From a bacterium (GTDB lineage Bacteria > Bdellovibrionota_C > UBA2361 > SZUA-149): DNA of 21,585 nucleotides. The notes under the pieces were generated by a model that did not search any database, had not been told where the DNA came from, and worked only from the letters and a program-made list of their open reading frames with translations. The DNA lies in assembly GCA_030433295.1 (NCBI GenBank), contig JAUIMJ010000041.1, forward strand, positions 1-21,585, written 5' to 3'. The number at the start of each line of letters is the position of its first letter. Positions within the stretch are counted from its first letter, which is position 1. A program made the position numbers and the translations under genes. Positions 1,064 to 17,947 of this stretch are shown here, piece after piece.

Positions 1064-1111
1064 GTATAACGTTTGGCATGAGTGTAATGCATAAGCACAG
1101 AGAGCGTGAGC

Positions 1112-2122
1112 ATGGGACTTTGGGACACCGTAAAAGGGCAACTTCGTTCAGTAATAGAATGGGAGAACGCTCACCAGGAGAATCTGTTTGAACTCTGGAG
1201 TATCAACGGAGACGAGATTAAGGACGCCTCCAAGCTCATCGTAAAGCCCGGACAGGGGGTGCTGTTCCTGTATGAGGGGCAAATCGAGGCGGTTCACCTA
1301 GAAGAAGGTCTCTACGATCTCAGTACCGACAACGTCCCCTTCCTCACCACACTCTCTAAATACATGCAGGCCTTTGAGAGTGAGCATAAAGTCGGGATCT
1401 ATTTCTTCTGGCAGACAGAGTTCCTCAATCAGAAATGGGGCACCCCTACCCCGGTAAAATACGACGACCCCGTGTACAAATTTCCGGTGGCGTTACGAGC
1501 GCACGGGAACTTCAGCTTCCGCATCACGCGCCCTGAATCTTTTTTCGTGAATGTCGTTGGTTCGCGTCCGGTCTACACCCTGCAGGACGCCAAGCGAGTA
1601 ATTGTAGATCGTTTCCTCCAGCAGCTCACGGATCTCTTCGCCGAGCAGGGACTCAGCTATGCCGAGATCGACAAGAATCGAAACGAACTGGCACAGGCGC
1701 TCACCACCCACTGCGCAGCCGAATTTGAACCCCTTGGATTCGAACTCACTGACCTTCGAATTGAGGGCACCGATTTTGATGAAGAGACAAAAGCGCGTAT
1801 CGCCCGCATCGCGGATATGACTGCCGAGGCAGAGGCTGCCAAGCGAGCTGGACTGAACTACGCGCAACTTCAACAGCTTGAGGCAATGAGAGAGGCTGCG
1901 AGGAATGAAGGTGGGATGGCCAGTGCGGGTGTGGGACTGGGAGCAGGACTGGGCCTGGGTCAGGCGTTCGCTTCTGGTATGACCAATATGCAGGCGGGTG
2001 CACCGGCTGCCGCAGACGATCCCACCGCTCGACTACAGAAGTTGAAGTCCATGTTCGAGGCGGAACTCATCTCAAAGGAAGAGTACGACAAGAAGAAGGC
2101 TGAAATTCTTGCAGACCTTTAG
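1112..2122 (+). CDS. SPFH/Band-7 superfamily protein (Band_7_1 / YdjI-like) with a C-terminal SHOCT-like tail.
   Basis: N-terminus MGLWDTVKGQLRSVIEWEN...LIVKPGQGVLFLYEGQ is typical of the YdjI-type SPFH family. Gly/Ala-rich linker. C-terminal ARLQKLKSMFEAELISKEEYDKKKAEILADL matches the SHOCT pattern (L..LK.L.d.G.Is.eEYe.KK..iL). ATG at 1112 preferred over the GTG at 1106. Confidence 0.8.
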   Translation: MGLWDTVKGQLRSVIEWENAHQENLFELWSINGDEIKDASKLIVKPGQGVLFLYEGQIEAVHLEEGLYDLSTDNVPFLTTLSKYMQAFESEHKVGIYFFWQTEFLNQKWGTPTPVKYDDPVYKFPVALRAHGNFSFRITRPESFFVNVVGSRPVYTLQDAKRVIVDRFLQQLTDLFAEQGLSYAEIDKNRNELAQALTTHCAAEFEPLGFELTDLRIEGTDFDEETKARIARIADMTAEAEAAKRAGLNYAQLQQLEAMREAARNEGGMASAGVGLGAGLGLGQAFASGMTNMQAGAPAAADDPTARLQKLKSMFEAELISKEEYDKKKAEILADL

Positions 2123-2162
2123 AGCAGCTTGCAAGAACACAATCAGATAGGACTTTTCCACA

Positions 2163-2786: not shown

Positions 2787-2830
2787 GCGCATGACTGGAA
2801 TCTGCGAACCGAGTAATTGAGAGCTTCGTT

Positions 2831-4348
2831 ATGAGCGATTCAGGGCCAGTCTCTGAAGAAAAGATTGCACAGGAAGTGCGCTCCATGATTGCGATGGGGC
2901 AGTTTGATAGAGCTCGCGTGCACGCAAAGCAGCTCGTAGCGGACCCCACTCTGCGTCAATCCGTTCTCGAAGAAATTGAAGCGGCGCAGAATCGAATGAA
3001 CGTCGGTTCAAGCAGTGCATCGGAAAGCTTCTCCGTAGAAACCCTTCAGTGCCCAAGTTGTCGGGGCTCCTTGTCACGCGCTATCAGTGAATCAGAAACA
3101 CTAACCTGCCCGGCCTGTGGCGCGGTGATTGACATCAGCAAACACCCTTTCTCTGTTCTCGATCAACAAAAACCAACGGCATACGCACCGGCGTCGTTCA
3201 TATCGCTGGGAATGCTCGGCACTTTTGAAAACGAAACGTATCAGGTGATTGGTCGGATCTGCTACTCCTCCTCGATGCAGGAATGGGATACAGAAGACAA
3301 TCAGTATTACCCCGAAACCTGGGTCTATGACACATGGATCCTCCTGGGAGAGAGCAAACGCTACCTCTACATTTCAGAGGATCGCGAGGGGTATAGCCTG
3401 GCAAAACCATTTACTCCGACCAGTCCTGCCCTTCCCGAAGGACAGTCTCAGCTTGCGCTGATGACTGACCACGTTCCACAGCGGGTTATCGAATACGGCA
3501 CAACCTCGGTAACCTACTTTGAGGGCGAATTTACCTGGCTACCCCGCGTAGGAGAGAAAGGAAAATTTGCAGAGTATCGGTACGGTGCTTACACATACAG
3601 CACTGAAGCCCGGTTGAAGAAAGGAGCTAAAGAAATAGCTGAAGTTGAGTTCTACGAAAGCCGCTCGATCAGCAAACTCGAATTAGCACGCGCTTTCGAT
3701 ATCAAGGAAATCATTCTGGAAGAGGCGGCCCTTGCTCGGAAAGAAGGAGAACTGAGAAGGTTGTCGTATCTTTCATACGCGGTCGGTGGAATCCTTACTC
3801 TTCTGTTTTTTGGCTCCTGTTCTGTTGGCAGTACGGCCGTAGCCTCGTATGAAGTTGACTTCACCAGACTTCCGGAGTCGGGACTGACAAAAGGCCCGAT
3901 AGAACTAAGCGAAGAGGGCTCGATCTACCAGCTCACGCTGAGTACGAGCATTCCGGACAATTCCTACTCCTGGGGCGCCATCGAGCTTCTCGACGAAAAG
4001 AAAGCGCCGATTAACGCATTCGAGGGGGATTTCTGGCGTGAATCAGGCTACGATTCGGACGGAAGGTGGTCCGAATCCTCAGTCAGCACAAGTCACCTCT
4101 TCAAACTTGAAACTCCGGGTACATACTATGTCCGTTTTTTCTCAGAAAAGGGAACCGCCAGTCGCGGGAAACTGCGCTTTGCTTTATCTGAGGGCATCAG
4201 TCTTTCCCGCTACTACTTTATCGGACTACTTGGGGCCTTCGGCTTCGGCTTTTCAATGAGAAAATATAAGTCGGCCAATCCCTTTTATATGCTGATCGGA
4301 ATTTTTGCCATCGCAGGAATAATCATTTCTTCTATGGGAGACGACTAA
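2831..4348 (+). CDS. Zinc-ribbon + DUF4178-like protein with C-terminal transmembrane helices (YdjH-like).
   Basis: LQCPSCRGS...TCPACGAV zinc ribbon. EWDTEDNQYYPETWVYDTWILLGESKRYLY core resembling the previous ORF. Hydrophobic segments AVGGILTLLFFGSCSV and GLLGAFGFGF...MLIGIFAIAGIIISS. 44 nt after the previous gene. Confidence 0.7.
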   Translation: MSDSGPVSEEKIAQEVRSMIAMGQFDRARVHAKQLVADPTLRQSVLEEIEAAQNRMNVGSSSASESFSVETLQCPSCRGSLSRAISESETLTCPACGAVIDISKHPFSVLDQQKPTAYAPASFISLGMLGTFENETYQVIGRICYSSSMQEWDTEDNQYYPETWVYDTWILLGESKRYLYISEDREGYSLAKPFTPTSPALPEGQSQLALMTDHVPQRVIEYGTTSVTYFEGEFTWLPRVGEKGKFAEYRYGAYTYSTEARLKKGAKEIAEVEFYESRSISKLELARAFDIKEIILEEAALARKEGELRRLSYLSYAVGGILTLLFFGSCSVGSTAVASYEVDFTRLPESGLTKGPIELSEEGSIYQLTLSTSIPDNSYSWGAIELLDEKKAPINAFEGDFWRESGYDSDGRWSESSVSTSHLFKLETPGTYYVRFFSEKGTASRGKLRFALSEGISLSRYYFIGLLGAFGFGFSMRKYKSANPFYMLIGIFAIAGIIISSMGDD

Positions 4349-4351
4349 GGG

Positions 4352-4591
4352 ATGAGTTTGTTTACCAAGCTTTTGGCGCTCATGACGATCTCATGCCTGC
4401 TGATTCTCCCCTATGCTGCCAGCCGAGGCGGATGGGGTATCGGGAGTGAAAAAAACCCGATCATTCTAAAGGGCGCCTCTGAATCATGCCCGGAATATCA
4501 ACGTTCTCTGAACGGAACATGCAGACGAAGAATTAGAAGTTACTACTACGGTCGAAGCTATGTCGGGGGGGGACCCCGCTATGGTAAGTAA
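4352..4591 (+). CDS. Small (79 aa) secreted/membrane peptide with signal-peptide-like N-terminus and a Gly/Tyr/Arg-rich C-terminal tail.
   Basis: Starts 3 nt after the upstream stop and ends 15 nt before the next gene. Hydrophobic N-terminus LLALMTISCLLILPYAASRG. Operon position is the main support. Confidence 0.4.
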   Translation: MSLFTKLLALMTISCLLILPYAASRGGWGIGSEKNPIILKGASESCPEYQRSLNGTCRRRIRSYYYGRSYVGGGPRYGK

Positions 4592-4606
4592 TGCAAGGAG
4601 AAACCC

Positions 4607-4927
4607 ATGAACACACGGAAGATTTATTCACTTCGCAAGGCTATCCACGTTGGGGCAGCCACTCTGAGCATGCTCGCGCTTCCGGCCTCTGCCATCGCTG
4701 AGGTTCCGCAGTTTACCGGACATCAGGTAGCTGATGGCGTTTTGGCCACGATTCTCTACAGTGCGATCGGAATAGTTATGGCGTTCATCGCCTATCGAGT
4801 TGTTGACCTTCTTACACCGGGAAATCTCGGTAAAGACATTGCCGACGGAAACACGGCTCTCGCTATCCTTGCGGGATTTAAAATACTTGGCGTTTGTATA
4901 ATTATCGCGGCCGCTATCGTCGGCTAA
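4607..4927 (+). CDS. DUF350 family small inner-membrane protein (E. coli YjfL-like).
   Basis: Strong SD (AAGGAGAAACCC-ATG). Two long hydrophobic helices and a conserved-looking ...DLLTPGNLGKDIADGNTALAI... segment typical of DUF350/YjfL. Confidence 0.75.
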   Translation: MNTRKIYSLRKAIHVGAATLSMLALPASAIAEVPQFTGHQVADGVLATILYSAIGIVMAFIAYRVVDLLTPGNLGKDIADGNTALAILAGFKILGVCIIIAAAIVG

Positions 4928-4996
4928 GGGCATCACCCTGAGGCTATTGGGCCAGCGTTTCCTGGTCCGCTTTTCGGGCCCGCCTTTTTGGGCCCA

Positions 4997-5134
4997 ATTT
5001 TCCGGGATACCACTTTTTCGCCACGGTGGTCTTGGCTTCCCGGGATACGTGCACAGGCGAATCTTAGAAAAAGTAGTTGATGTTTGTTTCCGCGCAGCCA
5101 GGCACGTAACAAACAGCGGTAGCTGCTTGCAGCT
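4997..5134 (+). promoter_or_regulatory. Repeat-rich putative promoter/operator region upstream of the membrane-fused spermidine synthase gene.
   Basis: 221-nt gap. Direct repeats CCGGGATAC (x2) and TTTTNGGGCCC (x2). Inverted repeat TGTTTGTT-N19-AACAAACA (5081-5115). Palindrome AGCTGCttGCAGCT (5121-5134). Followed by SD AGGTGA-N5-ATG. Confidence 0.3.
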
Positions 5135-5148
5135 CGCCAGGTGATGCA

Positions 5149-6720
5149 ATGAAAAACACTGGTGTCGATGATTCCGAGGCAGAATGGCCCGGTACTGAAG
5201 GCAGACCGTATCTGAGCAACAAGCAGGTGTGCATACTTGCCACCTCGATACTCATTACGTCGCTCTGCGCCCTTGTATATCAGTTACTGATAAGCAGCCT
5301 GTCTTCCTACCTTCTTGGTAGTAGTATACTTCATTTCTCCCTCACTATCGGCTTCTTCATGTTCTTCATGGGAGTCGGATCCTACGCCTCGAAGTATCTC
5401 GTCAAAAATCTCGTAGAGCAATTTATCCAGATTGAAATAGCGATAGGATTTGTTGGCGGCATTTCCGCTGCGCTTCTCTACACGAGCTTTAGTCTCAGTA
5501 AGTATTACTACATCAGCGCACTTCTTATCATAGCAATCATTAGCTGCCTCATAGGCCTGGAAATTCCTCTCGTCGCTCGTATCCTCAGAGCGCGCAGCGA
5601 ATTAAAAGATACACTCGCTAACATTCTCGCGGTTGACTATCTCGGTGCGCTCTTCGCCTCGATTATCTTTCCCTTGATTCTGGTCCCCTATCTTGGACTG
5701 ATGCGCACCGCCTTCATGATTGGCATCCTCAACACGGCCATCGCTCTGGTCACCCTGCGAGCATTTCTGCCTTATGTTGTCAGGGCAAAGAGATTATTAT
5801 TTCTGGGCATTGCGGTAATTTCACTGCTTAGCGTTGGTCTGGTGTTTTCCTTTCGCCTCATTGGCTATCTTGAAGGCTTTATTTATCAGGACCCAATAAT
5901 CTACTCGGCAGAGAGCAGCTACCAGCGCATAATCCTGACCAAGCATAAAAACGATATTCGTCTATTTCTCAATGGCAACATTCAGTTCAGTTCCATCGAT
6001 GAATATCGCTACCATGAACCCCTGGCACATATAATTCTTCCCAAATTGCCCTCTCGTGAACAGGTCCTGATTCTCGGAGGGGGTGATGGATTGCTCGCAC
6101 GTGAGGTTCTCAAGTACAAAGATGTGAAGACGGTGACAATCGTCGACATCGATAAACGCATGACAGACCTCGGGCAGAAAAACCCTATCTTCCAAAAGCT
6201 CAATGATTCATCGATGAACGACCCTCGGGTACGCATTGTTAATGAAGATGCCTTTGGCTTTATCCAGGAGTCCGTCGAGCGCTTCAATGCCGTTTTGATT
6301 GACCTGCCGGACCCCAATGACCTCGCAATAGGAAAGCTCTACAGCGTGGAATTTTATCAGGCGATAAAGAAGCGTCTTACGGCTGATGGTATGCTGATTA
6401 CCCAGGCATCATCACCGTTTTTTGCCCGTGCGGCATACTGGTGTGTTGCCAGCACGCTTGAAGAAGCCTTCGACCACGTCACCCCGCTTTGGGTCTATGT
6501 ACCCTCCTTCGGACCCTGGGGCTTTCACATCGCCTCTTCGGTTTCCTACTCTCTTCAGGATGGCGACATACCGGTTTCCACCCAGTATCTGACTCCTTCG
6601 GTGGTTCCCTCACTCTTTGTGTTTGATGCCGACAGCGAACGAGTTCCGACTGACGTCAATCGCCTCGATAACCAGAAGCTCGTCGAGTATTATGAGGCTG
6701 GCTGGAACGAGTGGAACTAG
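5149..6720 (+). CDS. speE: Polyamine aminopropyltransferase (spermidine/spermine synthase family) fused to an N-terminal ~7-helix membrane domain.
   Basis: C-terminal half has the canonical motifs LILGGGDGLLAREV ... VTIVDID ... VLIDLPDPND...LYSVEFYQ ... QASSPF. N-terminal 230 aa are almost entirely hydrophobic helices. Good SD. Confidence 0.85.
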   Translation: MKNTGVDDSEAEWPGTEGRPYLSNKQVCILATSILITSLCALVYQLLISSLSSYLLGSSILHFSLTIGFFMFFMGVGSYASKYLVKNLVEQFIQIEIAIGFVGGISAALLYTSFSLSKYYYISALLIIAIISCLIGLEIPLVARILRARSELKDTLANILAVDYLGALFASIIFPLILVPYLGLMRTAFMIGILNTAIALVTLRAFLPYVVRAKRLLFLGIAVISLLSVGLVFSFRLIGYLEGFIYQDPIIYSAESSYQRIILTKHKNDIRLFLNGNIQFSSIDEYRYHEPLAHIILPKLPSREQVLILGGGDGLLAREVLKYKDVKTVTIVDIDKRMTDLGQKNPIFQKLNDSSMNDPRVRIVNEDAFGFIQESVERFNAVLIDLPDPNDLAIGKLYSVEFYQAIKKRLTADGMLITQASSPFFARAAYWCVASTLEEAFDHVTPLWVYVPSFGPWGFHIASSVSYSLQDGDIPVSTQYLTPSVVPSLFVFDADSERVPTDVNRLDNQKLVEYYEAGWNEWN

Positions 6721-6851
6721 AGCAGTCTTCGGATAAAGATAGTACGATTTTATCCTACGACTGCTCTAGTTTTTCTTCTCCCGCACGGACAGACGTCCGT
6801 GCTCGAAAGCATTTTTCGCTGCGCTCTTAAAAAAATGCTGCGGAGCAGTCT
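6719..6851 (-). repeat. Inverted-orientation copy (~1.1 units) of the three-hairpin intergenic repeat family that is tandemly arrayed at 19004-19340. Starts on the TAG stop of the speE-like gene. Candidate terminator / REP-like element.
   Basis: The reverse complement of 6719-6851 aligns with ...AGCATTTTTc..GAAAAATGCT...GCACGGAC-N4-GTCCGTGC...AGAGCAGTCGYAGGATAAA-N10-TTTATCCGAAGACTGCTCT of the 19-kb array. Confidence 0.7.
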
Positions 6852-7047
6852 CCCCTCTCCCTCACAGACCTGTGTCGGCTCTCTAAAGCGGCGCCCCCTC
6901 GTAGCTCGCTAAGGATGCGGAAGGGCTCACCTCTTTATAATTAGCGGCGCTTTAAGGCTTCGGAGCACCTTCCCTGCTTGACCTGCTGGCCGCTATTTGG
7001 GATCTTCTATCGAGTAACGATGTATTAACAAGTCCCTTCGGATTCCT

Positions 7048-8343
7048 ATGACTTTGCGCATTCTTTGCTCTGGGGATATTCACCTGGGCCGCCTTCCGAC
7101 GCGCGTACCCTGGGATTCCTTGCATGATGAAAACCAGAAGTATTCCCTTACGCAGGAAGCAGCGCTTGAACGCCTTGTGCAACATGCTATCAGCGAAAAG
7201 GTCCATGCGGTCATGCTCAGCGGTGACATCATCGATCAGGCAAATGCGTACTTCGAGGGCGTGGCTGCTCTGGAGTCCCAACTCCGAAAGCTTGAAGCAG
7301 CCGGGATACCGGTATATGCCGTAGCCGGAAATCATGACTGGAAAATACTCTCCGACTTTGCCGACAATGTTGCGGGATGTACCCTCCTGGGAAGAGACGG
7401 CACCTGGGAGTCGCGCGAGCTAGTACACGAGGGCAACACTCTTGCGTACCTGCATGGTCGCTCGTTCACCGAACGTTTTTTCTATGGCGACCCCACTGAG
7501 GGACTTGTCGTTACGAGGAACGATATCCCAAATATCGTTCTGCTCCACGCCGACGTTGGTGCACCAGCAGACTCTTCCTATGCACCCGTTTCGCTACAAC
7601 GCTTGAAACAATACAATGATTGTAGCTGGCTGCTCGGACACATACACAAACCACAAGTGCTGAGCGAGGACCCCCTGATTTTCTATCCGGGATCTCTTCT
7701 TCCCCTCGATCCGGGGGAAACCGGCTCTCATGGCGCGAGCCTCCTCACATTTCCCGACGGACAGACGCCTCGTCACAGGCATCTGCCCCTTGCATCCCTT
7801 CGCTACGAGAGTATTGAAATCGATCTGGGAGGCGCCGAGGAAGGGGAATCACTGGATCCGGTAGTTCACAAAACTATAAAAACCTGGATTGAAGAGAACA
7901 GGACGGACCTGCAGGGGACAGAACGAGTACTTGCACGACTGCAATTGACCGGAAGAGTTCCCTCACTCCATGAGATCGAACAATATCGCATTGAACTAAG
8001 TGAGCGTCGGGAAATCCACATCGATACGCTTGCATTCACCATTGACTCGATTGTCAATCGATGTGAGCTGAAGATCCCTCTCGAGGAGCTTTCCGAATCG
8101 CAAACGCCACCCGGATTACTTGCTCAGAAAATTCTGATACTTAAGCACAGGCAGCCAACAGATGCCTATGGAGCCCTGCTTTCTTCAGGCAAAAAGCGGG
8201 TCCAGCGAGAAATCGAACGTTCTCACGGGGCAGCAGTGGATCTTCGACCCTGGGAAGACGAAGAAACCGTGCGCGAGCTTCTCCTCGAAAGCAGTTTTCT
8301 GCTTCTCGATGCATTCCTCCGGCAGAAGGAGGAGACGGCATGA
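7048..8343 (+). CDS. SbcD/Mre11-like calcineurin-type metallophosphoesterase (DNA repair exonuclease family; B. subtilis YhaO-like).
   Basis: Phosphoesterase motifs in order: GDIHLG, LSGDIID, GNHD, LLHAD, LGHIHKP. Stop overlaps the start of the next gene (ATGA). Confidence 0.8.
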   Translation: MTLRILCSGDIHLGRLPTRVPWDSLHDENQKYSLTQEAALERLVQHAISEKVHAVMLSGDIIDQANAYFEGVAALESQLRKLEAAGIPVYAVAGNHDWKILSDFADNVAGCTLLGRDGTWESRELVHEGNTLAYLHGRSFTERFFYGDPTEGLVVTRNDIPNIVLLHADVGAPADSSYAPVSLQRLKQYNDCSWLLGHIHKPQVLSEDPLIFYPGSLLPLDPGETGSHGASLLTFPDGQTPRHRHLPLASLRYESIEIDLGGAEEGESLDPVVHKTIKTWIEENRTDLQGTERVLARLQLTGRVPSLHEIEQYRIELSERREIHIDTLAFTIDSIVNRCELKIPLEELSESQTPPGLLAQKILILKHRQPTDAYGALLSSGKKRVQREIERSHGAAVDLRPWEDEETVRELLLESSFLLLDAFLRQKEETA

Positions 8344-11300
8344 AACTTCTCGACCTCTCTATTGTACGCATGCCGGGGATCGAGCGGCCGATACGCATAC
8401 AGTCCCTTGACGACACATTCAACATAATCCTCGGTGCAAACGCCTCTGGGAAATCGAGCATGTGCCGTGCCGCCCAGGCTCTGCTCTGGGTCAATGCAAT
8501 ACCGAAAGACTCCTATTGGGAGGTGCATAGTCATTGGAGCCAAAAGAACCCCAGTATCTCCGGCCAGACCGAAGACTCTGATGAACGGGCAAACATTGAG
8601 ATCCGTATCAAAGGACAGGAACACCAGGTGCTCCAGTTTGGCACAGAGCGCGAAGCACTTAACGTGCCCTCTGAAGCCCTCCGGGCGTGCTATCTGATTA
8701 CCCTCGAGGATCTTTTTGTATCTGACGGCTCTGATCTTGCTGCGATGATGGCTAATGAAATGGCCGGTGGATTCAACATACACGCTGTTAAGGATAAACC
8801 GCCCGTTCGAGCAAAACGCGTCCACCACGAGTCAAAACAACTAAAACTCGCGCAATCGAACTTCAGAAAAATTGATGCGCAGCAAAAATCACTGAAGCAG
8901 AGCGAGGTCAAACTCGCCCAGCTCAAGGACGACATAGAAAAGTTGCAGGCCAAAGCAAACCTGAAGGACAGTATACAACAAGCGATTGAGCTATACCGCT
9001 TAACCCAGGAAGACGAGGTTCGCACACAGCGACTCTCCAGCTTCCCCAAAGGACTTGAGAGTCTGTATGGCAATGAGCTTTCTGAACTCGATGAACTGCA
9101 GCAAGAGCTAAAGAGGCTTGAGAAAAACGCGCTTGATTACGAGCGACAAATAGAGGAAGCAAAGCTCCAGATCGCGGAACAATCTCTTCCCGAGGATGGG
9201 GTTTCTGACTCAGAAATGGAGGTTCTGCGAACCCTCATCTCGAGCCTGTCCCCCGTTGACCACGCGGTTACGCAACAAAAACAGAAGATACGAAAATGCG
9301 AACAGGCTCTTTCCATTGATGCTCTGGCAGACTCCGCTGACCTGCTGAATGGTCAGGATCCTCGCCCCGAACTCCTGCAAAGACTTTCCGCCCAGGCCTA
9401 CGCCCTGGAAGAAGCCAGTAGTAGAGAAGCACGACTCAGTGCCGAGTTTTCCTTGCTCGAGCGGCGCCTTGATGCGAATCCCCTTGGTGATTTTTCGAGC
9501 ACTGACTACGAGAATGCCCTGAACCTGCTCAACGAGGTGATTGAACAGCATCAGGAGCTCATCAGGAACAGAATCTCCACCGTCACCGTGATTTCTTTCT
9601 TGCTCTTGTGTGTGCTGGCTCTTGCCGGCGGCCATTTCGTTCATCCAGTATTGTACGGGATGGCTGCACTCGGCCTAATAAGCCTCACGCCAGTATGGCA
9701 GGCCATGCGAGGAGCGAGAATAAAACTCGCTGCATGTGAAGAGGCATGTTTGCAGAACTCATTACTGGCAGGGCGTACGGACATCAATGTCGATGAGCCT
9801 GAAACGCTCCGAAACTCTGTCGCGACGCTGAGCACTGAGAAAGCAAAACTTTTAGTAATCGAAGAGCGCAGACAAGGCGAAGAACAACAGTATCAGGTTC
9901 TTGAGCACGAATTCGCAGAAGCGAAGAAATTGACGGCCGGGATTCGCCGTGAGTGCTCCGCTCTCCTTGCGGATCTCGGAGTGCAGTCCGCAGAAGATAG
10001 CTTTTCAATCTCGTTCCTTTCCCGAGACCTGAACCAGCATGCTGAGCGGACCGCGGAACTGCGTGAGGCAGTTTCTTCCTATCGGGCTCGCCTCACTGAG
10101 CGTGAGGAGATCCTTGAGCGAATATCTGTCGTTCTGAAGCCCTTCGGCTATGCCGCTTGTCTCACGACAGAGGAAGCACAGGCTCACGGAAACGCTCTAC
10201 AGAAAAGACGCGACCTTCAGCAAAAGGCTGTTGAACTGCGCAGCAGGGCTCTCAGCGGCCAGAATGAGACAAAGCGTGCTCAGGAGCGATTGGCGAGCAA
10301 GTTTGAGGAACTGTATCGACGGGCAAATTTACCCTCCGGTGCGCGCAGTGAGTTGGAATCCCGCATGAACATGCTTCAGGAATTCAGGGAAACAAAAAAC
10401 GAGGAGGCCGCCGCGCGGGGCACTATACAACATCTTACTGAAAAACTTCGCAGGGAAACTCCGGAACTACTGGAACGCTCACTTCTCGACCTCGACCGTA
10501 ATGCAGTCGAGGCGGAGGCAGCGCTGACTGAGTATCATGAACTTCGTGATGAAGTAGTTAGAATTGAAACGGCGATTGCGGCCACGCGATCCGAACGCTC
10601 ACTGGAAGTGGCGGCCGAAAGTGTTCGGGCCGCAGAAGAACAGCTCAGAGAAGCAGCCCTTGAGAACGCCAAATCTGAACTCTGCTCGCTGCTTCTCGAA
10701 GACATTCAGGCTGAGCACCTGCAAAAGAACCGACCTGAAGTATTTACCAGAAGTTCCCAACTGTTTTCGCAGTTCACCCACGCTCGATATACACTCTCCG
10801 ACATAGCGCCGGACAAACATGGTGCCAGCTTTCGGGTATTCGACGCTCAACAGGGTACGTCCCTGGAACTCTCGCAGCTCTCCTCGGGAACCAAAGCGCA
10901 GATCCTGCTCGCGTGTAAGGTTGCCTTCGCCCAGTCGGCAGAGCGCGGGGATCCAATTCCGCTGTTTTTCGATGAGGCGCTGTCCACCAGTGATCCGCTT
11001 CGCTTCCAGGCCGTTATTGACGCGCTATGCTCCCTCGCTCGTGGCGGCAGGCAGATTCTCTACTTTACCTCTCAACCCAAAGACACACAGGTCATCGCTG
11101 ATCTCTGCGAAAAACAGTCATGTTCGGTAGCGCTTCATACCATCTCTAAGGATATGGAGAGAACGGATGCATCGCTGCTCATCTCGAGCCCACTGTTTGC
11201 GTCTGTTCCTGAGCCGGGTGGCCTGTCGTACGAAGAATATGTGAGAGAACTCAATATCGAACCTCTATCACTCTCCAAAGGCAGTGCCGCAATTCACCTG

Positions 11301-11846
11301 GCGCATCTCACCGATGATAAAGAATTACTGCATTCCTTACTCGAAATGCACATTCAGACATTCGGGCAATTAAAAACGTTGTATGAAAGCGACAGCGGTT
11401 CTGTCTATGTCCCTGATGCGGCATATACTCGCTTGGCTGCTCGGCATCGATTGATCAGCGCCTCATTTGAGCAATGGAAGATTGGTCGCGGGGAGCCGCT
11501 GACCCCGGAAATTATTCAGGAGGCCCTGCCCAAAACGAAGCATCGCGAGAGCATTCTCGATATCTGGAGAGAAACCAGAGACACTATTCGCTTCCTCGAT
11601 GCGATCGATCCCAACAAAGGGAAAGCAGTCTCCAGGTTCAAGGTCTCGCAGTTTGAACAGTTGAAAGATGCTCTGGTCGAACGAGGAAACTTCAGTGAAA
11701 CTCCCCCGCTTTCCGAAGAGGAGTTCCACCGCAACGTTCTGGGTGAAGTGTCAGCAGAGGTTGAAGCAGGCGCACTCAGCACATCTGAGGCGGCTAAAAT
11801 GTCACACGCGCTCTGGGAGCAACTTTCAAACGCCACACTGTATTAG
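8340..11846 (+). CDS. SbcC/Rad50-like ABC-type ATPase with very long coiled coil (B. subtilis YhaN-like). A predicted transmembrane hairpin sits mid-coiled-coil.
   Basis: Walker A GANASGKSS at N-terminus. ~700 aa of heptad-like, charged, Leu/Glu/Arg/Gln-rich sequence. Hydrophobic pair VTVISFLLLCVLALAGGHFV / LYGMAALGLISLTPVW at ~aa 410-457. C-terminal signature LSQLSSGTKAQ and Walker B PLFFDEALS. SD AAGGAGGA upstream; 4-nt overlap with the SbcD-like gene. Confidence 0.8.
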   Translation: MKLLDLSIVRMPGIERPIRIQSLDDTFNIILGANASGKSSMCRAAQALLWVNAIPKDSYWEVHSHWSQKNPSISGQTEDSDERANIEIRIKGQEHQVLQFGTEREALNVPSEALRACYLITLEDLFVSDGSDLAAMMANEMAGGFNIHAVKDKPPVRAKRVHHESKQLKLAQSNFRKIDAQQKSLKQSEVKLAQLKDDIEKLQAKANLKDSIQQAIELYRLTQEDEVRTQRLSSFPKGLESLYGNELSELDELQQELKRLEKNALDYERQIEEAKLQIAEQSLPEDGVSDSEMEVLRTLISSLSPVDHAVTQQKQKIRKCEQALSIDALADSADLLNGQDPRPELLQRLSAQAYALEEASSREARLSAEFSLLERRLDANPLGDFSSTDYENALNLLNEVIEQHQELIRNRISTVTVISFLLLCVLALAGGHFVHPVLYGMAALGLISLTPVWQAMRGARIKLAACEEACLQNSLLAGRTDINVDEPETLRNSVATLSTEKAKLLVIEERRQGEEQQYQVLEHEFAEAKKLTAGIRRECSALLADLGVQSAEDSFSISFLSRDLNQHAERTAELREAVSSYRARLTEREEILERISVVLKPFGYAACLTTEEAQAHGNALQKRRDLQQKAVELRSRALSGQNETKRAQERLASKFEELYRRANLPSGARSELESRMNMLQEFRETKNEEAAARGTIQHLTEKLRRETPELLERSLLDLDRNAVEAEAALTEYHELRDEVVRIETAIAATRSERSLEVAAESVRAAEEQLREAALENAKSELCSLLLEDIQAEHLQKNRPEVFTRSSQLFSQFTHARYTLSDIAPDKHGASFRVFDAQQGTSLELSQLSSGTKAQILLACKVAFAQSAERGDPIPLFFDEALSTSDPLRFQAVIDALCSLARGGRQILYFTSQPKDTQVIADLCEKQSCSVALHTISKDMERTDASLLISSPLFASVPEPGGLSYEEYVRELNIEPLSLSKGSAAIHLAHLTDDKELLHSLLEMHIQTFGQLKTLYESDSGSVYVPDAAYTRLAARHRLISASFEQWKIGRGEPLTPEIIQEALPKTKHRESILDIWRETRDTIRFLDAIDPNKGKAVSRFKVSQFEQLKDALVERGNFSETPPLSEEEFHRNVLGEVSAEVEAGALSTSEAAKMSHALWEQLSNATLY

Positions 11847-11932
11847 CCTAAAGAAATTAGCCCAGAGACATTAACCCAATGAATGTACGCCGGAGACACA
11901 GGTAGTAATCACCGCCAGACTTGGTGTCGAGG

Positions 11933-12331
11933 TCAGTAACTCGGTTTTTGATTGAACTCCGGGTCATTCCAAAGAGAAAATCGATACCAGCACATAAGAA
12001 TCACCAGGAGGACGAGAATACCGCCGACAAACTGCTGCCGATCTGACTTCTCCCCCCTCCCGGAGGCAAAGAACAGTAGAAACATACCCGCACTTCCGGC
12101 AAGAACCATAATAAGACTGGCCGCAGGATGCGTCATGAGGCGCTGAAAAAGCGTCGGCCCACCAATGCTTTCGACCGCGTAGGCTTCATCACCCCATTGG
12201 GCGGACACAGGTTCCACAGCCAGAATAAGCGCTCCAAACACGGCAAGTGAACAACGCAAATAACACTCTGAAAGGAATTGTAAGGGCTTTCGAGGAAAAC
12301 CGTATCGAGCCATTTCTCCTTCCTCCTTCAA
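11933..12331 (-). CDS. Hypothetical small membrane protein (2-3 predicted helices).
   Basis: Hydrophobic stretches LAVFGALILAV, LIMVLAGSAGMFLLFFA, VGGILVLLVILMCWY. No recognisable family. Confidence 0.4.
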   Translation of the reverse strand: MKEEGEMARYGFPRKPLQFLSECYLRCSLAVFGALILAVEPVSAQWGDEAYAVESIGGPTLFQRLMTHPAASLIMVLAGSAGMFLLFFASGRGEKSDRQQFVGGILVLLVILMCWYRFSLWNDPEFNQKPSY

Positions 12332-12423
12332 TTCTTATGTCCGCCCCGGAAAAGGGTACCGGATAAGGGTTCAAGGATACGTTCACAAAGGATACCATCG
12401 CGAATGTCTATCCAGAGACTGCT

Positions 12424-12957
12424 CTAGGCACGAGGAAACAGGCGCGCATGCCATGATTCAGAAAATGGACGGGCAAAGTCACCCAATCTATCGGTGGTAT
12501 CAACGGTGGTATCAAAAACGGTTATATCCGGCGAGAACTCATCCGATTTCACGTAGCTCGCAAAATCTGCTCTGTTCATCTGCTCGACCTCAGCCCCACG
12601 CAAAAAGAATATATCGGAAAGGTCGGCCATCTCATTCCCCCCTGCCGAGAGTTCCTGCCGAACTGCCCCAAACAGAGAGTCTATGGAACAACCGGAGACC
12701 GCTGCCGATTGTTTATCAGCTCCGACCAACACAAAACGTCCATACGCCACCTCGAGCGCCCCTGAAACCGCAGCGCCATGAGCCTCCCAGCCCGCAAGAA
12801 ACGAAGAAAGCCGTGAACTGAGCTCGGCACAACGCGGGTCCGATTTCGACAATGAGGCTCGTAAGGGAAACACCCATAGACGAGAGCCTGGGGCGAGAGT
12901 GGCAAGGCCGGGAAAGGAAGCTCCGGCGTCCTTAGCGGAAATTTCTACATGATCCAT
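12424..12957 (-). CDS. Hypothetical protein (177 aa), family not recognised. Immediately downstream of the AdoMetDC-spermidine synthase fusion on the same strand.
   Basis: Intact ORF with protein-like composition, same strand as and ~100 nt after the speH-speE fusion. No motif I can name with confidence. Confidence 0.45.
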   Translation of the reverse strand: MDHVEISAKDAGASFPGLATLAPGSRLWVFPLRASLSKSDPRCAELSSRLSSFLAGWEAHGAAVSGALEVAYGRFVLVGADKQSAAVSGCSIDSLFGAVRQELSAGGNEMADLSDIFFLRGAEVEQMNRADFASYVKSDEFSPDITVFDTTVDTTDRLGDFARPFSESWHARLFPRA

Positions 12958-13061
12958 TTTTCATTCCCTATGGTGGCACATCGCAAACGACATACGATTG
13001 CAACGCCTGTGTTGATCTTCCGTAAGAATTCGGCCGAACTTCATCAGCACGCTTCGCCGAA

Positions 13062-14141
13062 CTATCCTTTCCGAGCGCTGATAAATCGCCATCGACCAAA
13101 AGCAGATGGTAAATATACCAGTTTTGATCGTATATCAGAAAAATGTGCTGTAATCATTTCCTCAAGCAAGTCGTTGGTGACGCGATCGAACTCTGAACAA
13201 CATTGCAGCACAATCACTCCGCCGTCCGCTAATGACTCAGAAATCCTGTGGAACATCTCGCGAAGATACGTCTCACGGGGCACCTGAGTAAAAGCCTCCG
13301 GATGCATACTAAGGTCGACCACAACGCAGGAATACTCTCCTGGCGAAACGCGAGCCAAAAAGGCCACCACATCGTCATACGTAAGCTTGACTCGAGAATC
13401 ACTAAAGGCGTCACCGCAATGTTCCGGCAGGTATTGCTGGCTCAGAGACACGACCCCCTCATCAATTTCAACCAAGGTTATTGATGCGGGATCATGCTCC
13501 AGCAAGGTCTTCAGAACACCGCCATCCCCACCTCCTAGCAACAAAACATTGGCAAGGTCAGCAGATCGTTCATTGAGCATTTCAAGCATTACCTGACTGT
13601 AACGCTCGGCATCCAGTTCTGCGACCTGCAAATCATCATCCAACACCAGCATTCGACCAAAACGAGTGCTGTCTGCGATACATACTCGCTGGAATGCGGT
13701 AGCGCCGTTATAAATGGTTTTCTCTATCGGCACCCGATGATCCACGCCCTCAGCAGAACTCAGACAGATACTATCTGTTCGCTGAACATCCAGAACATCG
13801 CCTCGTTGAATCAAAGCCCTTCTCACATGGGCGGGAGCAAGGTACGTTACAAAGTGATCGACAATACTCCGTGATTTTTCGGGCTCAGGCGAGCAGGTAA
13901 ATATATCCACGGAAGCATGGGCTGCCTCGGGATACGTGTGAATAACAACGTGAGATTCGCTGATTATCCCCAGAACCGTCAGCCCATGAGGCTCATACGA
14001 ATGGGAGTGAAGGGAGATAAGGCCGAAGCCGGCGCTCTCTATCCCCCTGCGCAAAATCTCGAGCATCCCATCGGCATCACCCAACATTCCCGCAGCACAT
14101 CCCTCAAGTTCTGCCAGAATTTGACTGCCTGCCGGTTTCAT
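13062..14141 (-). CDS. speH-speE: Fusion protein: pyruvoyl-dependent S-adenosylmethionine decarboxylase proenzyme (SpeH/SpeD class 1b, N-terminal ~125 aa) + spermidine synthase-family aminopropyltransferase (C-terminal).
   Basis: N-terminus LAELEGC...LISLHSHSYEPHGLTVLGIISESHVVIHTYPEAAHASVDIFTC closely matches Bacillus-type SpeH, including the ES self-cleavage site. C-terminus has LLLGGGDGGVLKTLLEH...ITLVEIDEGVV...VVVDLS... aminopropyltransferase motifs. Confidence 0.85.
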   Translation of the reverse strand: MKPAGSQILAELEGCAAGMLGDADGMLEILRRGIESAGFGLISLHSHSYEPHGLTVLGIISESHVVIHTYPEAAHASVDIFTCSPEPEKSRSIVDHFVTYLAPAHVRRALIQRGDVLDVQRTDSICLSSAEGVDHRVPIEKTIYNGATAFQRVCIADSTRFGRMLVLDDDLQVAELDAERYSQVMLEMLNERSADLANVLLLGGGDGGVLKTLLEHDPASITLVEIDEGVVSLSQQYLPEHCGDAFSDSRVKLTYDDVVAFLARVSPGEYSCVVVDLSMHPEAFTQVPRETYLREMFHRISESLADGGVIVLQCCSEFDRVTNDLLEEMITAHFSDIRSKLVYLPSAFGRWRFISARKG

Positions 14142-14471
14142 TTCGCATTCTCAGGTTTACTAGGGCCCCGCGTATACTTGCTTCGGCCAGAGGACATAAC
14201 ACGGACCGAGGAAAGATCCATGCCCAAAACTTAGATAAACTACACGGTTATTCCTGCCGACGCTACCGCTAAGCCCAGCTTTTACGGTTGCTGCCCCTGG
14301 CACAAACCTGTACCATTACCGTAGTTTATCAGACATCTGTGACCACCCGCGTGGATGATGCTTTGGAAGCCTGCCCATCGACTGGCTTAAAGCCCGGGCG
14401 GATGCTGTGTAATTCGCCGCTTTTGGAGTGCTCGAAACTTGGCGCAAAACAGAACAAGTGACAGAACGACC

Positions 14472-15212
14472 ATGCCCTTGCGGGCCTGCACCCTGCTGAT
14501 GCTTATCTCGGTGCTCTTCCCCCTCAGCGCCTGCAAGGAGGATGTGTATCTTGGTACCAGCGCGGAGCGGGTTGCCAGTGGTGGCGGTACTGACGGCAGC
14601 GGAACCTCAAGTGGAGGGGATGCGGACGATGACGCCGACGCTCTGAGCAACGAAGTAGAGGAGAGTTTCGATCTCGACCCCCGCAAAGCTGACTCTGATC
14701 ATGACGGCATCGCAGACGGACTTGAGTTTGTCGGTGACGGCGGAGATCCACTAAATGGCAGTGCCACACCCAATTCCCTAAACAGAGTTAAAGTGCTGAG
14801 TAGCTCGGACATCGTTCTCAATGACCCGGACCGGGACGGCGATGGTCTGGGGAGTATTTTTGAAGACGAGAATGACCTCGACGATACTGATCCGGATATC
14901 GACGACGACGGGTATAGTGATGGCATTGAACTCGTCGCCAATTCGAACCCCTTTCTCGCCGACGACAGACCGACCAGGGATGCACCTCCCGCAAGCGATG
15001 GCATAGACCGGACAGGTAGCGCCCCGGTCGACTCAGATGGTGATGGAATTTCTGACCAGCTGGAATCTCTTAATGGTACGATTTCCACGCAGCAGGACAC
15101 GGACAGTGATGGATTCAGTGACGGGATCGAGCTGCTTATGGGCAGCGACGAGACGGACAACGCAAGCGTGCCAAATTTTGGGGTTCCCGCCAGACCGGAG
15201 AGCCTTAGTTGA
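14472..15212 (+). CDS. Lipoprotein with multiple thrombospondin-type-3-like calcium-binding Asp repeats.
   Basis: Signal peptide plus lipobox (LFPLSAC). At least five DxDxDGxxDxxE-type repeats: DSDHDGIADGLE, DRDGDGLGSIFEDE, DIDDDGYSDGIE, DSDGDGISDQLE, DTDSDGFSDGIE. ATG at 14472 preferred over the upstream TTG (14439). Confidence 0.7.
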   Translation: MPLRACTLLMLISVLFPLSACKEDVYLGTSAERVASGGGTDGSGTSSGGDADDDADALSNEVEESFDLDPRKADSDHDGIADGLEFVGDGGDPLNGSATPNSLNRVKVLSSSDIVLNDPDRDGDGLGSIFEDENDLDDTDPDIDDDGYSDGIELVANSNPFLADDRPTRDAPPASDGIDRTGSAPVDSDGDGISDQLESLNGTISTQQDTDSDGFSDGIELLMGSDETDNASVPNFGVPARPESLS

Positions 15213-15316
15213 GACCGATCGACCGCGGAGAACATCCAATACTCAGGTATACTCCCATACGTCGCCGAACACGAAGATCAAAGTTTTAGAACGGAAGGAA
15301 CAGAAACGGTATTATC

Positions 15317-16162
15317 ATGATTCTGCGAAAAACAATTGTAACCTGTGCTTTACTTGGCTCTATGAGTGTCTTTGCGCCAACGCCCGTAACTGCAGAAACT
15401 ACGGATTTTGGTGGATACCCGGATCGCTTCCGGGCAGGCGGTGATCAAACACCGCCTCGGTGCCAGATTGACGCCCCGCGCTCAGCCACTTCCTCGTTCT
15501 TTGTGCAGTGGGATTGTGACGATGATGTAAGTCCGGACGATGAAATACGGACCGAACTCTGGTTGTTGCGTCGAGGCGCCCCAACCACGGTCAAGATTGC
15601 CGACTTTCTCGGATTCCCGGCCTCGGTCCAAATCAATGAAGCAATTCTTCAGTCTGAAAGCTTTACCGATGGGCTTCCGATTACGCTTCGTCTCCTCGCT
15701 CGAGACAGAGCAGGAAACGGCTCGCTGTCACCCTTTTTAACTATCCTCGGTCAGGACAACTCAGTCGATACCTGTGATCTGGTCTTGCTGACAGACACCA
15801 CCGAGTCTGATGGCGGAACGACTGGCCTGCCTTCCATGTCGGTAGTCCTCGACAACGCCATGGTAAGCAGTCAACAAAGCAGCAATGTCGATCTACGAAT
15901 ATCAACACCAATCGCAGCAACCGCAGACCCCTGCGAAATCGACAGCGTATGCTCTGACGGTTCAGTTAACTTCGTAGCAACGATTCTTATCGATGACGAT
16001 AACAATGCCACCGCGAGCATCAGTATTACGCCCGGCTCAGTACTGGCCAACGTCAGTGGCAGCGCGGTAGTAAACGGTACTGACCTGTCGAGTTTAAGCC
16101 TTCAGGGCACGACCGTCATCGATAACGTGGTTACCAGCGTCTCTCTGAGCTGTCAGCAGTAG
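15317..16162 (+). CDS. Secreted hypothetical protein (signal peptide, Ser/Thr/Asp-rich, several Cys).
   Basis: N-terminal signal peptide MILRKTIVTCALLGSMSVFAPTPVTA. No recognisable catalytic motif. Co-directional with and 104 nt after the TSP3 lipoprotein. Confidence 0.55.
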   Translation: MILRKTIVTCALLGSMSVFAPTPVTAETTDFGGYPDRFRAGGDQTPPRCQIDAPRSATSSFFVQWDCDDDVSPDDEIRTELWLLRRGAPTTVKIADFLGFPASVQINEAILQSESFTDGLPITLRLLARDRAGNGSLSPFLTILGQDNSVDTCDLVLLTDTTESDGGTTGLPSMSVVLDNAMVSSQQSSNVDLRISTPIAATADPCEIDSVCSDGSVNFVATILIDDDNNATASISITPGSVLANVSGSAVVNGTDLSSLSLQGTTVIDNVVTSVSLSCQQ

Positions 16163-16229
16163 CTATATACTTCAGACTCTGTACTTCTGCATTCTCTGCT
16201 TCCTCACTCCCAGGGGTAGTGGCGAAGGT

Positions 16230-16260
16230 GCGCGCTGCGTTCAGTGCCTGAGAAGCGCGC
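16230..16260. terminator. GC-rich hairpin (GCGCGCT-N17-AGCGCGC) between convergent genes (secreted protein on +, lgt on -). Possible bidirectional terminator, but no U-tract.
   Basis: Inverted repeat read from sequence. Overlaps the lgt stop codon. Confidence 0.3.
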
Positions 16261-17036
16261 TAGCGAACGTCTCCTCGCTTGAAATACATAAGCGCCAGGC
16301 CGGGCAGGCAAATCGCAATAGCGACAATTTGGGCCTGCGTGAGAGGCCCAAAAATGCGCGGCTCAATGCGAATAATTTCTACGAGGAACCTGGCAAGAGA
16401 CGAAAGAAACAGATACAGGCCGAACAACTGCCCGGCACCTGGCAGGATACGACGAGTTGCCGGAGATAGCAGAATAAACGCGATGCAGAGGGCCCCGAAA
16501 CTTTCATACACAGGGGCCGGATGATGTAGGACTCCGGGCTCGGTAGGTATCACTCCGTGGACATACTGCATGCCCCAGGGCAGCTGCGTTGGCCCACCAT
16601 AATCCCCGTCCCCGGATAATTGGCAGCCAATCCTCCCTACCGCATAGCCACCCGCAAGTGATGGTGCGGCGAGGTCCCCGAAAACGACAAAGTCCTTTCC
16701 CTCTCTACGCAGGAGAAGCCAGACACCAAGAGCACCACCGATAAAACCACCATAGAAGACAAAGCCAGCTCCCCCAAAAAGAGTCGCAAGGGGCGCATCA
16801 AAAAATGCCTGGGGATAGCTGATGATATACCCCACACGGGCGCCAACAATACCCCCGACCGCTGCCCAGGTGACCATGTCTTCGGCCAGCTCACCGGGCT
16901 CACCGGCCGCAAGCAAACTCAGCTGCAGTCGTCGCCAGGCCGCCAGAAACGCACAAACCATCATCAGGCCAAAGCTATGCAGCGGGAGTGCGAAATCAAG
17001 CAGTGGAAGAGGAATTTCAAAAAGAGTAGGTATCAC
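16260..17036 (-). CDS. lgt: Prolipoprotein diacylglyceryl transferase.
   Basis: Multi-pass membrane protein with the Lgt signature region GRIGCQLSGDGDYGGPTQLPWGM and N-terminal FGLMMVCAFLAAW resembling WYGLMY. GTG start overlaps the upstream tlpA-like stop (GTGA). Confidence 0.85.
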   Translation of the reverse strand: MIPTLFEIPLPLLDFALPLHSFGLMMVCAFLAAWRRLQLSLLAAGEPGELAEDMVTWAAVGGIVGARVGYIISYPQAFFDAPLATLFGGAGFVFYGGFIGGALGVWLLLRREGKDFVVFGDLAAPSLAGGYAVGRIGCQLSGDGDYGGPTQLPWGMQYVHGVIPTEPGVLHHPAPVYESFGALCIAFILLSPATRRILPGAGQLFGLYLFLSSLARFLVEIIRIEPRIFGPLTQAQIVAIAICLPGLALMYFKRGDVR

Positions 17037-17596: not shown

Positions 17597-17846
17597 CCCC
17601 CTGCGCGATACGCGCTATCTATCATTGAAACATACTCACCAGACTTCGTTAGCAGGAGTACGAGCTTTTTCAAATAAAAGCGAGGGATGGGTGAATGTTG
17701 ATATAGCCAATACACCTGAGAAGTACGTGGGTTATGAGAATTAGTCGTTGAGCACAAAGCCCCCTATACACACACCAAATTGCCCAACAATGGAGCGGTT
17801 AAGCCTTCGCAACTCGAGCTATTCTATAGCATTTCAAAATTTCCCT

Positions 17847-17863
17847 AGCATTTCAGAAATGCT
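17847..17863. promoter_or_regulatory. Perfect 17-bp palindrome AGCATTTCaGAAATGCT in the tlpA / lpxL divergent promoter region (preceded by a TAGCATTTCA direct repeat).
   Basis: Read directly from sequence. Confidence 0.3.
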
Positions 17864-17947
17864 CTATTTAACCTATACATTAGCCCCGAACTCGGGAAGG
17901 GCCCCTGCCCTACACGTAACCTACTATTTTACTAATATAGACTGATT

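Follow-up and report, generated by a model that had tools for sequence, protein, structure and literature searches.

A membrane-fused aminopropyltransferase and an AdoMetDC-aminopropyltransferase fusion as neighbors on a Bdellovibrionota_C contig

The DNA considered here comprises positions 1–21,585 of contig JAUIMJ010000041.1, forward strand (the window, 21,585 nucleotides in all), and carries two open reading frames, ORF A and ORF B, each of which encodes an aminopropyltransferase (APT) domain. They probably represent two separate APT modules of kinds that have been described before: a membrane APT acting on an amine acceptor, and a self-sufficient fusion with an S-adenosylmethionine decarboxylase (AdoMetDC), which would make spermidine and, most likely, spermine. 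Translations, Pfam matches, and hydropathy confirm that both genes encode the domains that had been claimed for them, at the coordinates and on the strands given in Table 1. The original prediction also considered both architectures unusual, which they are not: ORF A belongs to the NCBIfam family NF002956 and has at least 7,995 homologues, and AdoMetDC-APT fusions have been functionally characterized (PMC12803844, PMC11107197). The side-by-side placement of the two modules is rare and lineage-specific, and it is the sole unusual point.

In the mechanism that we propose, ORF A would pass the aminopropyl moiety of decarboxylated S-adenosylmethionine (dcAdoMet) on to an amine acceptor at the membrane, working within an envelope-associated system of Band7, DUF4178, and DUF350 proteins. 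The ORF B proenzyme would cleave itself at E62/S63 to create the pyruvoyl cofactor for decarboxylation of AdoMet, and its C-terminal domain would act in the cytosol, adding an aminopropyl group to putrescine and probably also to spermidine. By analogy with a homologue of 43% identity, the products of ORF B would be spermidine and, most likely, spermine.

The membrane-fused aminopropyltransferase and its operon

Residues 23–522 of ORF A align with positions 15–521 of the 522-position NF002956 profile at 581.8 bits (cut-off 472), and residues 286–462 match Pfam Spermine_synth (E 1.4e-38). The homologue count, obtained at E ≤ 1e-20, is a lower bound; those homologues that are named are called polyamine aminopropyltransferase or spermidine synthase. 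Because the family is curated by NCBIfam and has this many homologues, the membrane-fused APT architecture is to be regarded as common and catalogued. ORF A shares with NF002956/PRK03612 the full-length match, seven transmembrane (TM) helices resembling those of the major facilitator superfamily (MFS), the APT motifs, and the Band7/SHOCT-DUF4178-DUF350 partners. It differs in possessing Q45 at a near-invariant intramembrane position (Glu in 109/112 sequences). The NF037959 model, “fused MFS/spermidine synthase,” is only partially matched at 40.7 bits (cut-off 40), and relatives of ORF A that are linked to an AdoMetDC gene score 34.6–50.2 bits against it; ORF A is related to this family and better placed in NF002956. 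It misses the cut-offs for canonical SpeE (140.4 vs 249.55 bits for TIGR00417; 170.7 vs 260 bits for NF002010).

Alignments were made with human spermidine synthase, T. maritima SpeE, and human spermine synthase, the reference sequences of which were verified against PDB beforehand. The catalytic domain of ORF A contains Y258-Q259, D284-E-x-x-Y288-H-E290, G310-G-G-D313-G, D333, D367, and D385-L-P-D388-P, and these correspond to human spermidine synthase as Q259=Q49, Y288=Y79, D313=D104, D333=E124, D367=D155, D385=D173, and D388=D176. The last two also pair with D170 and D173 of T. maritima SpeE, which bears out the suggestion that DLPDP is the equivalent of DS[ST]DP; the motif is present in 119/120 close homologues. 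Across 16 diverse family members the YQ, DExxYHE, GGGDG, D333, D367, and DLPDP elements are invariant. The alignment to the T. maritima and human enzymes, which had been recommended as a check, thus finds ORF A to be canonical and ORF B to lack the second Asp, and a search for loss of dcAdoMet-binding residues in ORF A, the mark of a pseudoenzyme, found all of them kept.

The AlphaFold2 (AF2) model of ORF A has a mean pLDDT of 86.4, with the membrane helices spanning residues 24–232; hydropathy likewise reveals seven hydrophobic helices. The canonical SpeE proteins (TIGR00417/NF002010; T. maritima 1INL, human 2O05) have the Rossmann-type APT fold and the dcAdoMet motifs in common with ORF A and ORF B, and both Asp residues of DSxDP recur in ORF A, which in contrast to SpeE has an additional membrane domain and a 60-residue C-terminal extension. 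Among solved structures, the one nearest to ORF A is that of the T. thermophilus polyamine APT, an enzyme acting on longer substrates or agmatine. Judged from these residues, ORF A is most likely a catalytically competent, membrane-anchored, dcAdoMet-dependent aminopropyltransferase.

It is very improbable that ORF A is instead a pseudoenzyme, sensor, or transporter with a non-catalyzing APT domain. The catalytic and dcAdoMet-binding residues are kept and are invariant across the family, for which reason this candidate was rejected, and functional AdoMetDC genes are embedded in most operons encoding such seven-TM APTs (7TM-APTs). In favor of a pseudoenzyme, related membrane-APT fusions gave no complementation in a speE mutant of E. 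coli (Li 2019, cited in PMC12803844). According to the same citation, experiments showed bacterial membrane protein-APT fusions to have no part in spermidine or spermine biosynthesis, the subfamily tested being one that may not be NF002956. The acceptor of related fusions is reported as neither putrescine nor spermidine.

ORF A is the last gene of an operon on the + strand (1106–6720) with the order Band7/SHOCT, zinc-ribbon-DUF4178, DUF4178, DUF350, and 7TM-APT. A survey of 80 metagenomic loci with ORF A relatives at 40–49% identity revealed that most share this gene order. The partners recorded were DUF350 (65 loci), DUF4178 (63), a stand-alone homologue of class-1b AdoMetDC (34), and Band7 (20); DUF350 lies directly 5′ of the 7TM-APT in 65/80 loci, and in 20/80 a Band7 gene stands where it does in the window. 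Where at least 8 kb of flanking DNA is available on both sides (n = 20), DUF4178 is found in 20 loci, DUF350 (again directly 5′ of the 7TM-APT) in 19, and a stand-alone class-1b AdoMetDC homologue, within or beside the operon, in 14. The AdoMetDC gene is usually the first, giving AdoMetDC-DUF4178-DUF350-7TM-APT, and operons of the Band7 type often have it just 3′ of the 7TM-APT. Those 7TM-APTs that have a linked AdoMetDC gene belong to NF002956 (595–691 bits), and their partner genes match TIGR03330. The operon in the window, which is of the Band7 type, differs from these NF002956/PRK03612 operons in having no stand-alone AdoMetDC of its own, and ORF B provides the sole AdoMetDC domain in the window.

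This arrangement agrees with the description by Ravi 2024 of a spermidine/spermine-synthase-like domain joined to a 7TM transporter-like domain in an operon with DUF350 and DUF4178 (PMC11237479, section 19), including operon variants that have a Band7-SHOCT protein instead of the PspA dyad (PMC11237479). That paper credits the linkage of membrane protein-spermidine synthase-like fusions with AdoMetDC and DUF350 to Li 2019 (Biochem J 476:2579, as cited in PMC11237479).

The gap between the DUF350 gene and ORF A (4928–5148) is unusually long at 221 nt, with most related loci having less than 100 nt. Within it is a GC-rich hairpin followed by a T-run (4964–4980, +; GGTCCGCTTTTCGGGCC...TTTTT), which may represent a terminator or attenuator within the operon. 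Rfam models, run against the entire window, gave no RNA element, and a promoter scan gave fewer matches than expected from shuffled sequence. Among the operon-linked stand-alone AdoMetDC homologues located 5′ of a 7TM-APT (loci L095, L099, L102, L104, L122, L130, L144, L149, and L161), one subset has “[FY]LSN” in place of the canonical “FTC,” that is, Ser at catalytic Cys83, and another subset has “NLYCCR.” These homologues may not all be genuine AdoMetDCs; neofunctionalized SpeD homologues offer a comparison (PMC10407285).

One question that concerns the whole family is on which side of the membrane the APT domain resides. In 112/112 family members, approximately 10 Lys and Arg residues lie in those membrane-domain loops that are on the N-terminal side, against approximately two on the other side. 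Given seven helices, the positive-inside rule therefore predicts an N-in/C-out topology, with the APT domain outside the cytoplasm. This charge bias may be a topology artefact or genuinely interesting. The intramembrane residues E96, E138, R144, and D163 are also invariant in 112/112 sequences. We consider it quite unlikely that the APT domain is periplasmic, with dcAdoMet from the neighboring fusion crossing the membrane, probably via the protein's own MFS-like domain, and an envelope amine being aminopropylated; under that reading E96, E138, and D163 would probably form part of the MFS-like passage for dcAdoMet. Were it true, a periplasmic APT would constitute extracytoplasmic transfer of an AdoMet-derived group tied to an envelope-stress operon, and the family-wide topology question deserves a direct test.

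The AdoMetDC-aminopropyltransferase fusion

ORF B contains three Pfam domains: AdoMet_dc at residues 8–114 (E 2.4e-24), Spermine_synt_N at 131–175, and Spermine_synth at 181–353 (E 2.7e-26). The first passes TIGR03330, the model for the B. subtilis type of AdoMetDC (80.2 bits; cut-off 75.65), and aligns with the A. aeolicus (2III, E 4e-19) and T. maritima (1TLU, E 4e-12) enzymes. E62, S63, H68, and C83 have the same numbers as in T. maritima AdoMetDC without any shift in register, and E11, S63, H64, H68, E72, D79, and C83 are invariant in the alignment of the fusion family. The domain is therefore of the SpeH type (class 1b) with an ES processing site, as had been claimed, and self-cleavage of the proenzyme at E62/S63 is predicted from these correspondences. 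The APT motifs are Q151, Y181, G203-G-G-D206-G, E225, D257, and D276. Like ORF A, ORF B misses the cut-offs for canonical SpeE (118.4 vs 249.55 bits for TIGR00417; 136.1 vs 260 bits for NF002010), from which it differs in its extra AdoMetDC domain and a remodeled gatekeeper loop.

AdoMetDC-spermidine synthase fusions were reportedly first described by Green et al. 2011. A search with ORF B returned 182 homologues at E ≤ 1e-10; the architecture was checked for the 120 listed, and nearly all are three-domain proteins, with a few truncated entries. The listed homologues come from Syntrophales, Krumholzibacteria, Latescibacterota, Nitrospirota, Aenigmarchaeota, and other groups. We considered whether the AdoMetDC domain of ORF B was independently derived from the stand-alone enzyme of the operons, and rejected this, the domain being 44–50% identical to those of the fusion family and approximately 30% identical to the operon-linked ones.

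The comparison that carries most of the functional assignment is with MCK4773364.1 (row P0012) from Ca. Krumholzibacteria, with which ORF B shares 43% identity at 99% coverage (E 1e-88). When Li et al. 2025 expressed the protein, they found both AdoMetDC and spermine synthase activity (PMC12803844). They propose that AdoMetDC-APT fusions were the ancestor of animal spermine synthase and describe deltaproteobacterial MBW2649524 as a second validated class-1b AdoMetDC-spermine synthase fusion (PMC12803844). The latter was not found among the 20 homologue clusters that were looked up, leaving MCK4773364 as the sole anchor of the comparison. With the class-1b AdoMetDC-spermine synthase fusions ORF B shares architecture, a length in the range of approximately 355–380 aa, the ES/H/C site, and a DL[ST]M[HY]PE motif. 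Related activities are known from Pelagibacter, where AdoMetDC-APT fusions produce spermidine together with spermine or thermospermine (PMC11107197).

Structural modeling points the same way. For the AF2 model of ORF B (pLDDT 89.8) the best Foldseek match is human spermine synthase (3C6K/3C6M; E 1.1e-26), with approximately 370 aligned columns vs approximately 245 for ordinary spermidine synthases. The match extends over all three domains at an identity of only approximately 21%. D201 and D276 of the human enzyme are kept as D206 and D276, and whereas the N-terminal domain of human spermine synthase is a dead AdoMetDC, ORF B retains the Ser for processing as well as the His and Cys for catalysis.

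The motif following the catalytic Asp had been singled out as one in which the second Asp appears absent or shifted. D276 of ORF B is itself the invariant catalytic residue (D276 in human spermine synthase, D173 in human spermidine synthase). The second Asp has been replaced, and a conserved Glu, E282, directly after the Pro aligns to its position, so “shifted” is a fair description. The sequence DLSMHPE is no peculiarity of ORF B. The consensus DL[ST]MHPE occurs in 117 of approximately 190 fusion-family sequences, DLTMHPE being the commonest form (102) and DLSMHPE the second commonest (15), and MCK4773364 has DLTMYPE; the motif is a mark of membership in the fusion family. The loss itself had been observed correctly. 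In the alignment, human spermine synthase has D276-LTAVP, a “DLxxxP” loop of the same length that also lacks the second Asp, where human spermidine synthase has D173-SSDP. Since loss of the second Asp is common to spermine synthases, the motif, if informative about specificity, favors the longer acceptor for the fusion, with spermidine being converted into spermine.

The substrate pocket is less orthodox. ORF B has the loop PSAFGRW (PSTFGRW in a relative of 68% identity), in which the Glu and Cys of PSFCENW in MCK4773364 are both missing; the family pattern is PS[FY]C[E/T/S]xW. G349 stands at the position of E353 in human spermine synthase and E347 in MCK4773364, and A347 (Thr in the 68%-identical relative) at that of Y241 in human spermidine synthase, where Phe or Tyr is otherwise present. 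Phe150 takes the place of Tyr in the YQ motif. The role given to E353 of the human enzyme reportedly derives from Wu et al. 2008. These departures, of which the PSAFGRW loop is private to the lineage, speak for the reading that ORF B is no spermine synthase but forms spermidine only, or uses an acceptor such as agmatine or 1,3-diaminopropane. Promiscuity, moreover, is widespread among bacterial APTs (PMC11107197). Set against this are the 43% full-length identity to a validated spermine synthase and the variability, within the fusion family, of both the Glu position (S/T/A/V) and the Tyr of the YQ motif; we therefore hold a product other than spermine to be possible but rather doubtful.

The original prediction envisaged a division of labor in which the triamine (spermidine) is the product of the cytosolic fusion and is then elongated or otherwise turned into a different polyamine by the membrane enzyme, with dcAdoMet supplied by the fusion. 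Several observations are compatible with that: in ORF A both acidic residues and all dcAdoMet motifs are intact, the closest structure to ORF A is an enzyme of longer substrates or agmatine, ORF B has no Glu matching E353 of human spermine synthase, and 7TM-APT operons in general have linked AdoMetDC genes. The characterized homologues of ORF B are nevertheless themselves spermine synthases, the clue that was cited, loss of the second Asp, is common to such enzymes, and membrane-APT fusions have been reported to act outside spermidine and spermine synthesis (PMC12803844, citing Li 2019). We consider the proposed division unlikely and probably inverted, the fusion, with the spermine synthase MCK4773364 as homologue, being the likely maker of the longer polyamine.

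Adjacency of the two modules and their neighbors

ORF A and ORF B are convergent and 6.3 kb apart. To ascertain how common this is, 80 species-representative loci containing the fusion, 27 of which have at least 8 kb on both sides, were searched for a 7TM-APT within 10 kb. One was found (1/80; 1/27 of the well-flanked loci), and no fusion gene lies near the 7TM-APT in any of the 80 7TM-APT loci (0/80). In just one of the latter is there a second APT-like ORF, a weak one; two APT-domain genes within 10 kb are uncommon. The closest relative of the window (68% and 77% identity) is fully syntenic with it. Of the compared loci, two need to be named: L001 (JGI 3300036201 Ga0401694_0001) and L058 (CBDUGV01, a Bdellovibrionales metagenome-assembled genome, MAG). 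In L058 the modules are likewise convergent and adjacent, its fusion being 38% and its 7TM-APT 54% identical to the window proteins, and the genes between them differ. No 7TM-APT lies within the available flanks, 7.6 kb and 10 kb, of the fusion in a Bdellovibrio sp. MAG (L071). Fusions of Syntrophales, Latescibacterota, and Nitrospiraceae are single genes among unrelated housekeeping neighbors with no conserved context. Class-1b AdoMetDC-spermine synthase fusions are otherwise monocistronic, whereas ORF B is followed by small lineage-specific ORFs and has a 7TM-APT operon beside it.

Whether the two modules are functionally coupled is finely balanced. The AdoMetDC domain of the fusion may serve as the dcAdoMet source for the 7TM-APT in this lineage, a suggestion we put forward tentatively; it is plausible because these operons usually include an AdoMetDC gene (14/20 well-flanked loci) and the one in the window does not. 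We give the same tentative standing to the opposite, namely that the modules are uncoupled and neighbors through lineage synteny, the 7TM-APT drawing dcAdoMet from another AdoMetDC gene or the general pool. The absence of pairing in 79/80 fusion loci and 80/80 7TM-APT loci speaks for the latter, as do the convergent orientation, the 6.3 kb separation with an SbcCD-like gene pair in between, the unaccompanied fusion of L071, and the 6/20 well-flanked 7TM-APT loci that have no AdoMetDC nearby. It accounts less well for the adjacency retained between the window and L058 despite 38–54% identity and different inserted genes, and for the absence from the window operon of an AdoMetDC that 70% of comparable loci have. 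With approximately 30% of well-flanked loci having none, however, this absence is no proof that ORF A depends upon ORF B.

The assignment of two described modules, one at the membrane and the other a self-sufficient maker of spermidine and probably spermine, has to be weighed against the following. The pocket loop of ORF B (PSAFGRW, G349, A347) departs from that of its validated relatives, and its product may differ. A non-cytoplasmic APT domain, as predicted for ORF A, fits poorly with simple use of cytosolic dcAdoMet. For membrane-APT fusions there is the negative result of Li 2019, as cited in PMC12803844, for proteins that may not be of the NF002956 type. With regard to any link between the modules, 79/80 fusion loci have no 7TM-APT, the fusion is elsewhere monocistronic, and adjacency may be plain lineage synteny; six of the 20 well-flanked 7TM-APT loci do without a nearby AdoMetDC; and the AdoMetDC domain of ORF B belongs to the fusion clade (44–50% identity) and not to the operon-linked stand-alone type (approximately 30%).

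Two small genes follow ORF B, u177 and u132; in the closest relative, the two small ORFs after the fusion are tightly packed, with gaps of 11–17 nt. A homologue of u177 follows the fusion in L001–L003 and L058, and it is a partner of the fusion in this lineage only; u132 was seen only in the window and L001–L003. The u177 protein has no Pfam, NCBIfam, or PADLOC match. It was rejected as a general polyamine partner: there are 15 homologues, and those found elsewhere are not near polyamine genes. In other phyla they adjoin an AI-2E transporter gene, directly after it in Gemmatimonadota, or other genes unrelated to polyamines. Divergent from ORF B are genes for a TSP3-repeat protein with an N-terminal hydrophobic segment (14439–15212, +) and a 281-residue orphan protein (15317–16162, +), both of which are kept beside the fusion in L058 (52% and 45% identity, respectively).

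The SbcCD-like pair between the polyamine modules consists of a Metallophos nuclease (7048–8343, +) and a 1168-residue SMC/AAA ATPase (8340–11846, +). PADLOC gave weak matches only (mad3, LmuB, AriA). The pair is kept in the 68%-identical relative and absent from L058. In L058 a DUF2130 gene (11677–12858, +) separates the u177 homologue from the 7TM-APT, and a Mokosh MkoC gene (950.9 bits; 15236–18493, −) is inserted between the DUF350 and 7TM-APT genes. The interior of the modules, like the stretch that separates them, thus has the look of a variable insertion spot for defense-like genes.

Table 1. Positions in the window of ORF A, ORF B, their parts, and the genes that accompany them.
Feature	Positions	Strand	Basis or remark
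ORF A: 7TM (MFS-like) domain + polyamine aminopropyltransferase	5149..6720	+	523 aa; NF002956/PRK03612 member
ORF A membrane domain, seven TM helices, residues 24–232	5218..5844	+	Hydropathy, AF2 model
ORF A APT catalytic domain, residues 250–463	5896..6537	+	Alignment to human spermidine synthase, T. maritima SpeE
ORF A DLPDP, residues 385–389	6301..6315	+	Equivalent to DSSDP/DSTDP of canonical spermidine synthases
ORF B: class-1b AdoMetDC - central beta domain - APT fusion	13062..14141	−	359 aa; homologue of bacterial AdoMetDC/spermine synthase
ORF B AdoMetDC domain, residues 1–118	13788..14141	−	Aligns to 2III, 1TLU
ORF B predicted self-cleavage site E62/S63 (Ser to pyruvoyl)	13953..13958	−	Numbered as in T. 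maritima AdoMetDC
ORF B central beta domain (131–175) + APT domain (181–353)	13083..13751	−	Pfam, alignment
ORF B DLSMHPE, residues 276–282	13296..13316	−	Family consensus DL[ST]MHPE
Band7/SPFH + C-terminal SHOCT, first operon gene (Band7 variant)	1106..2122	+	Band_7_1 E 2.7e-39, SHOCT E 3.7e-6
Zinc-ribbon + DUF4178 protein, 207 aa	2163..2786	+	DUF4178 E 1.1e-8; zinc-ribbon matches weak
Large DUF4178 protein, 505 aa, hydrophobic segments	2831..4348	+	DUF4178 E 1.7e-4
DUF350 (YjfL-family) small membrane protein	4607..4927	+	Pfam DUF350 E 9.8e-14
u177: orphan soluble protein, 177 aa, directly downstream of ORF B	12424..12957	−	15 homologues
u132: small 3-TM protein, 132 aa, last ORF of the ORF B gene string	11933..12331	−	Hydropathy

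Significance for the 7TM-APT system

Both architectures had already been catalogued, and one of them has biochemically validated relatives. The value of the lineage lies in their combination: it is a convenient test case because the usual dedicated AdoMetDC is absent from the operon and a self-sufficient AdoMetDC/spermine synthase fusion adjoins it. It constitutes a natural experiment on what the widespread 7TM-APT/DUF350/DUF4178 system aminopropylates, and could show whether that system needs dcAdoMet alone or also the polyamine made next door.

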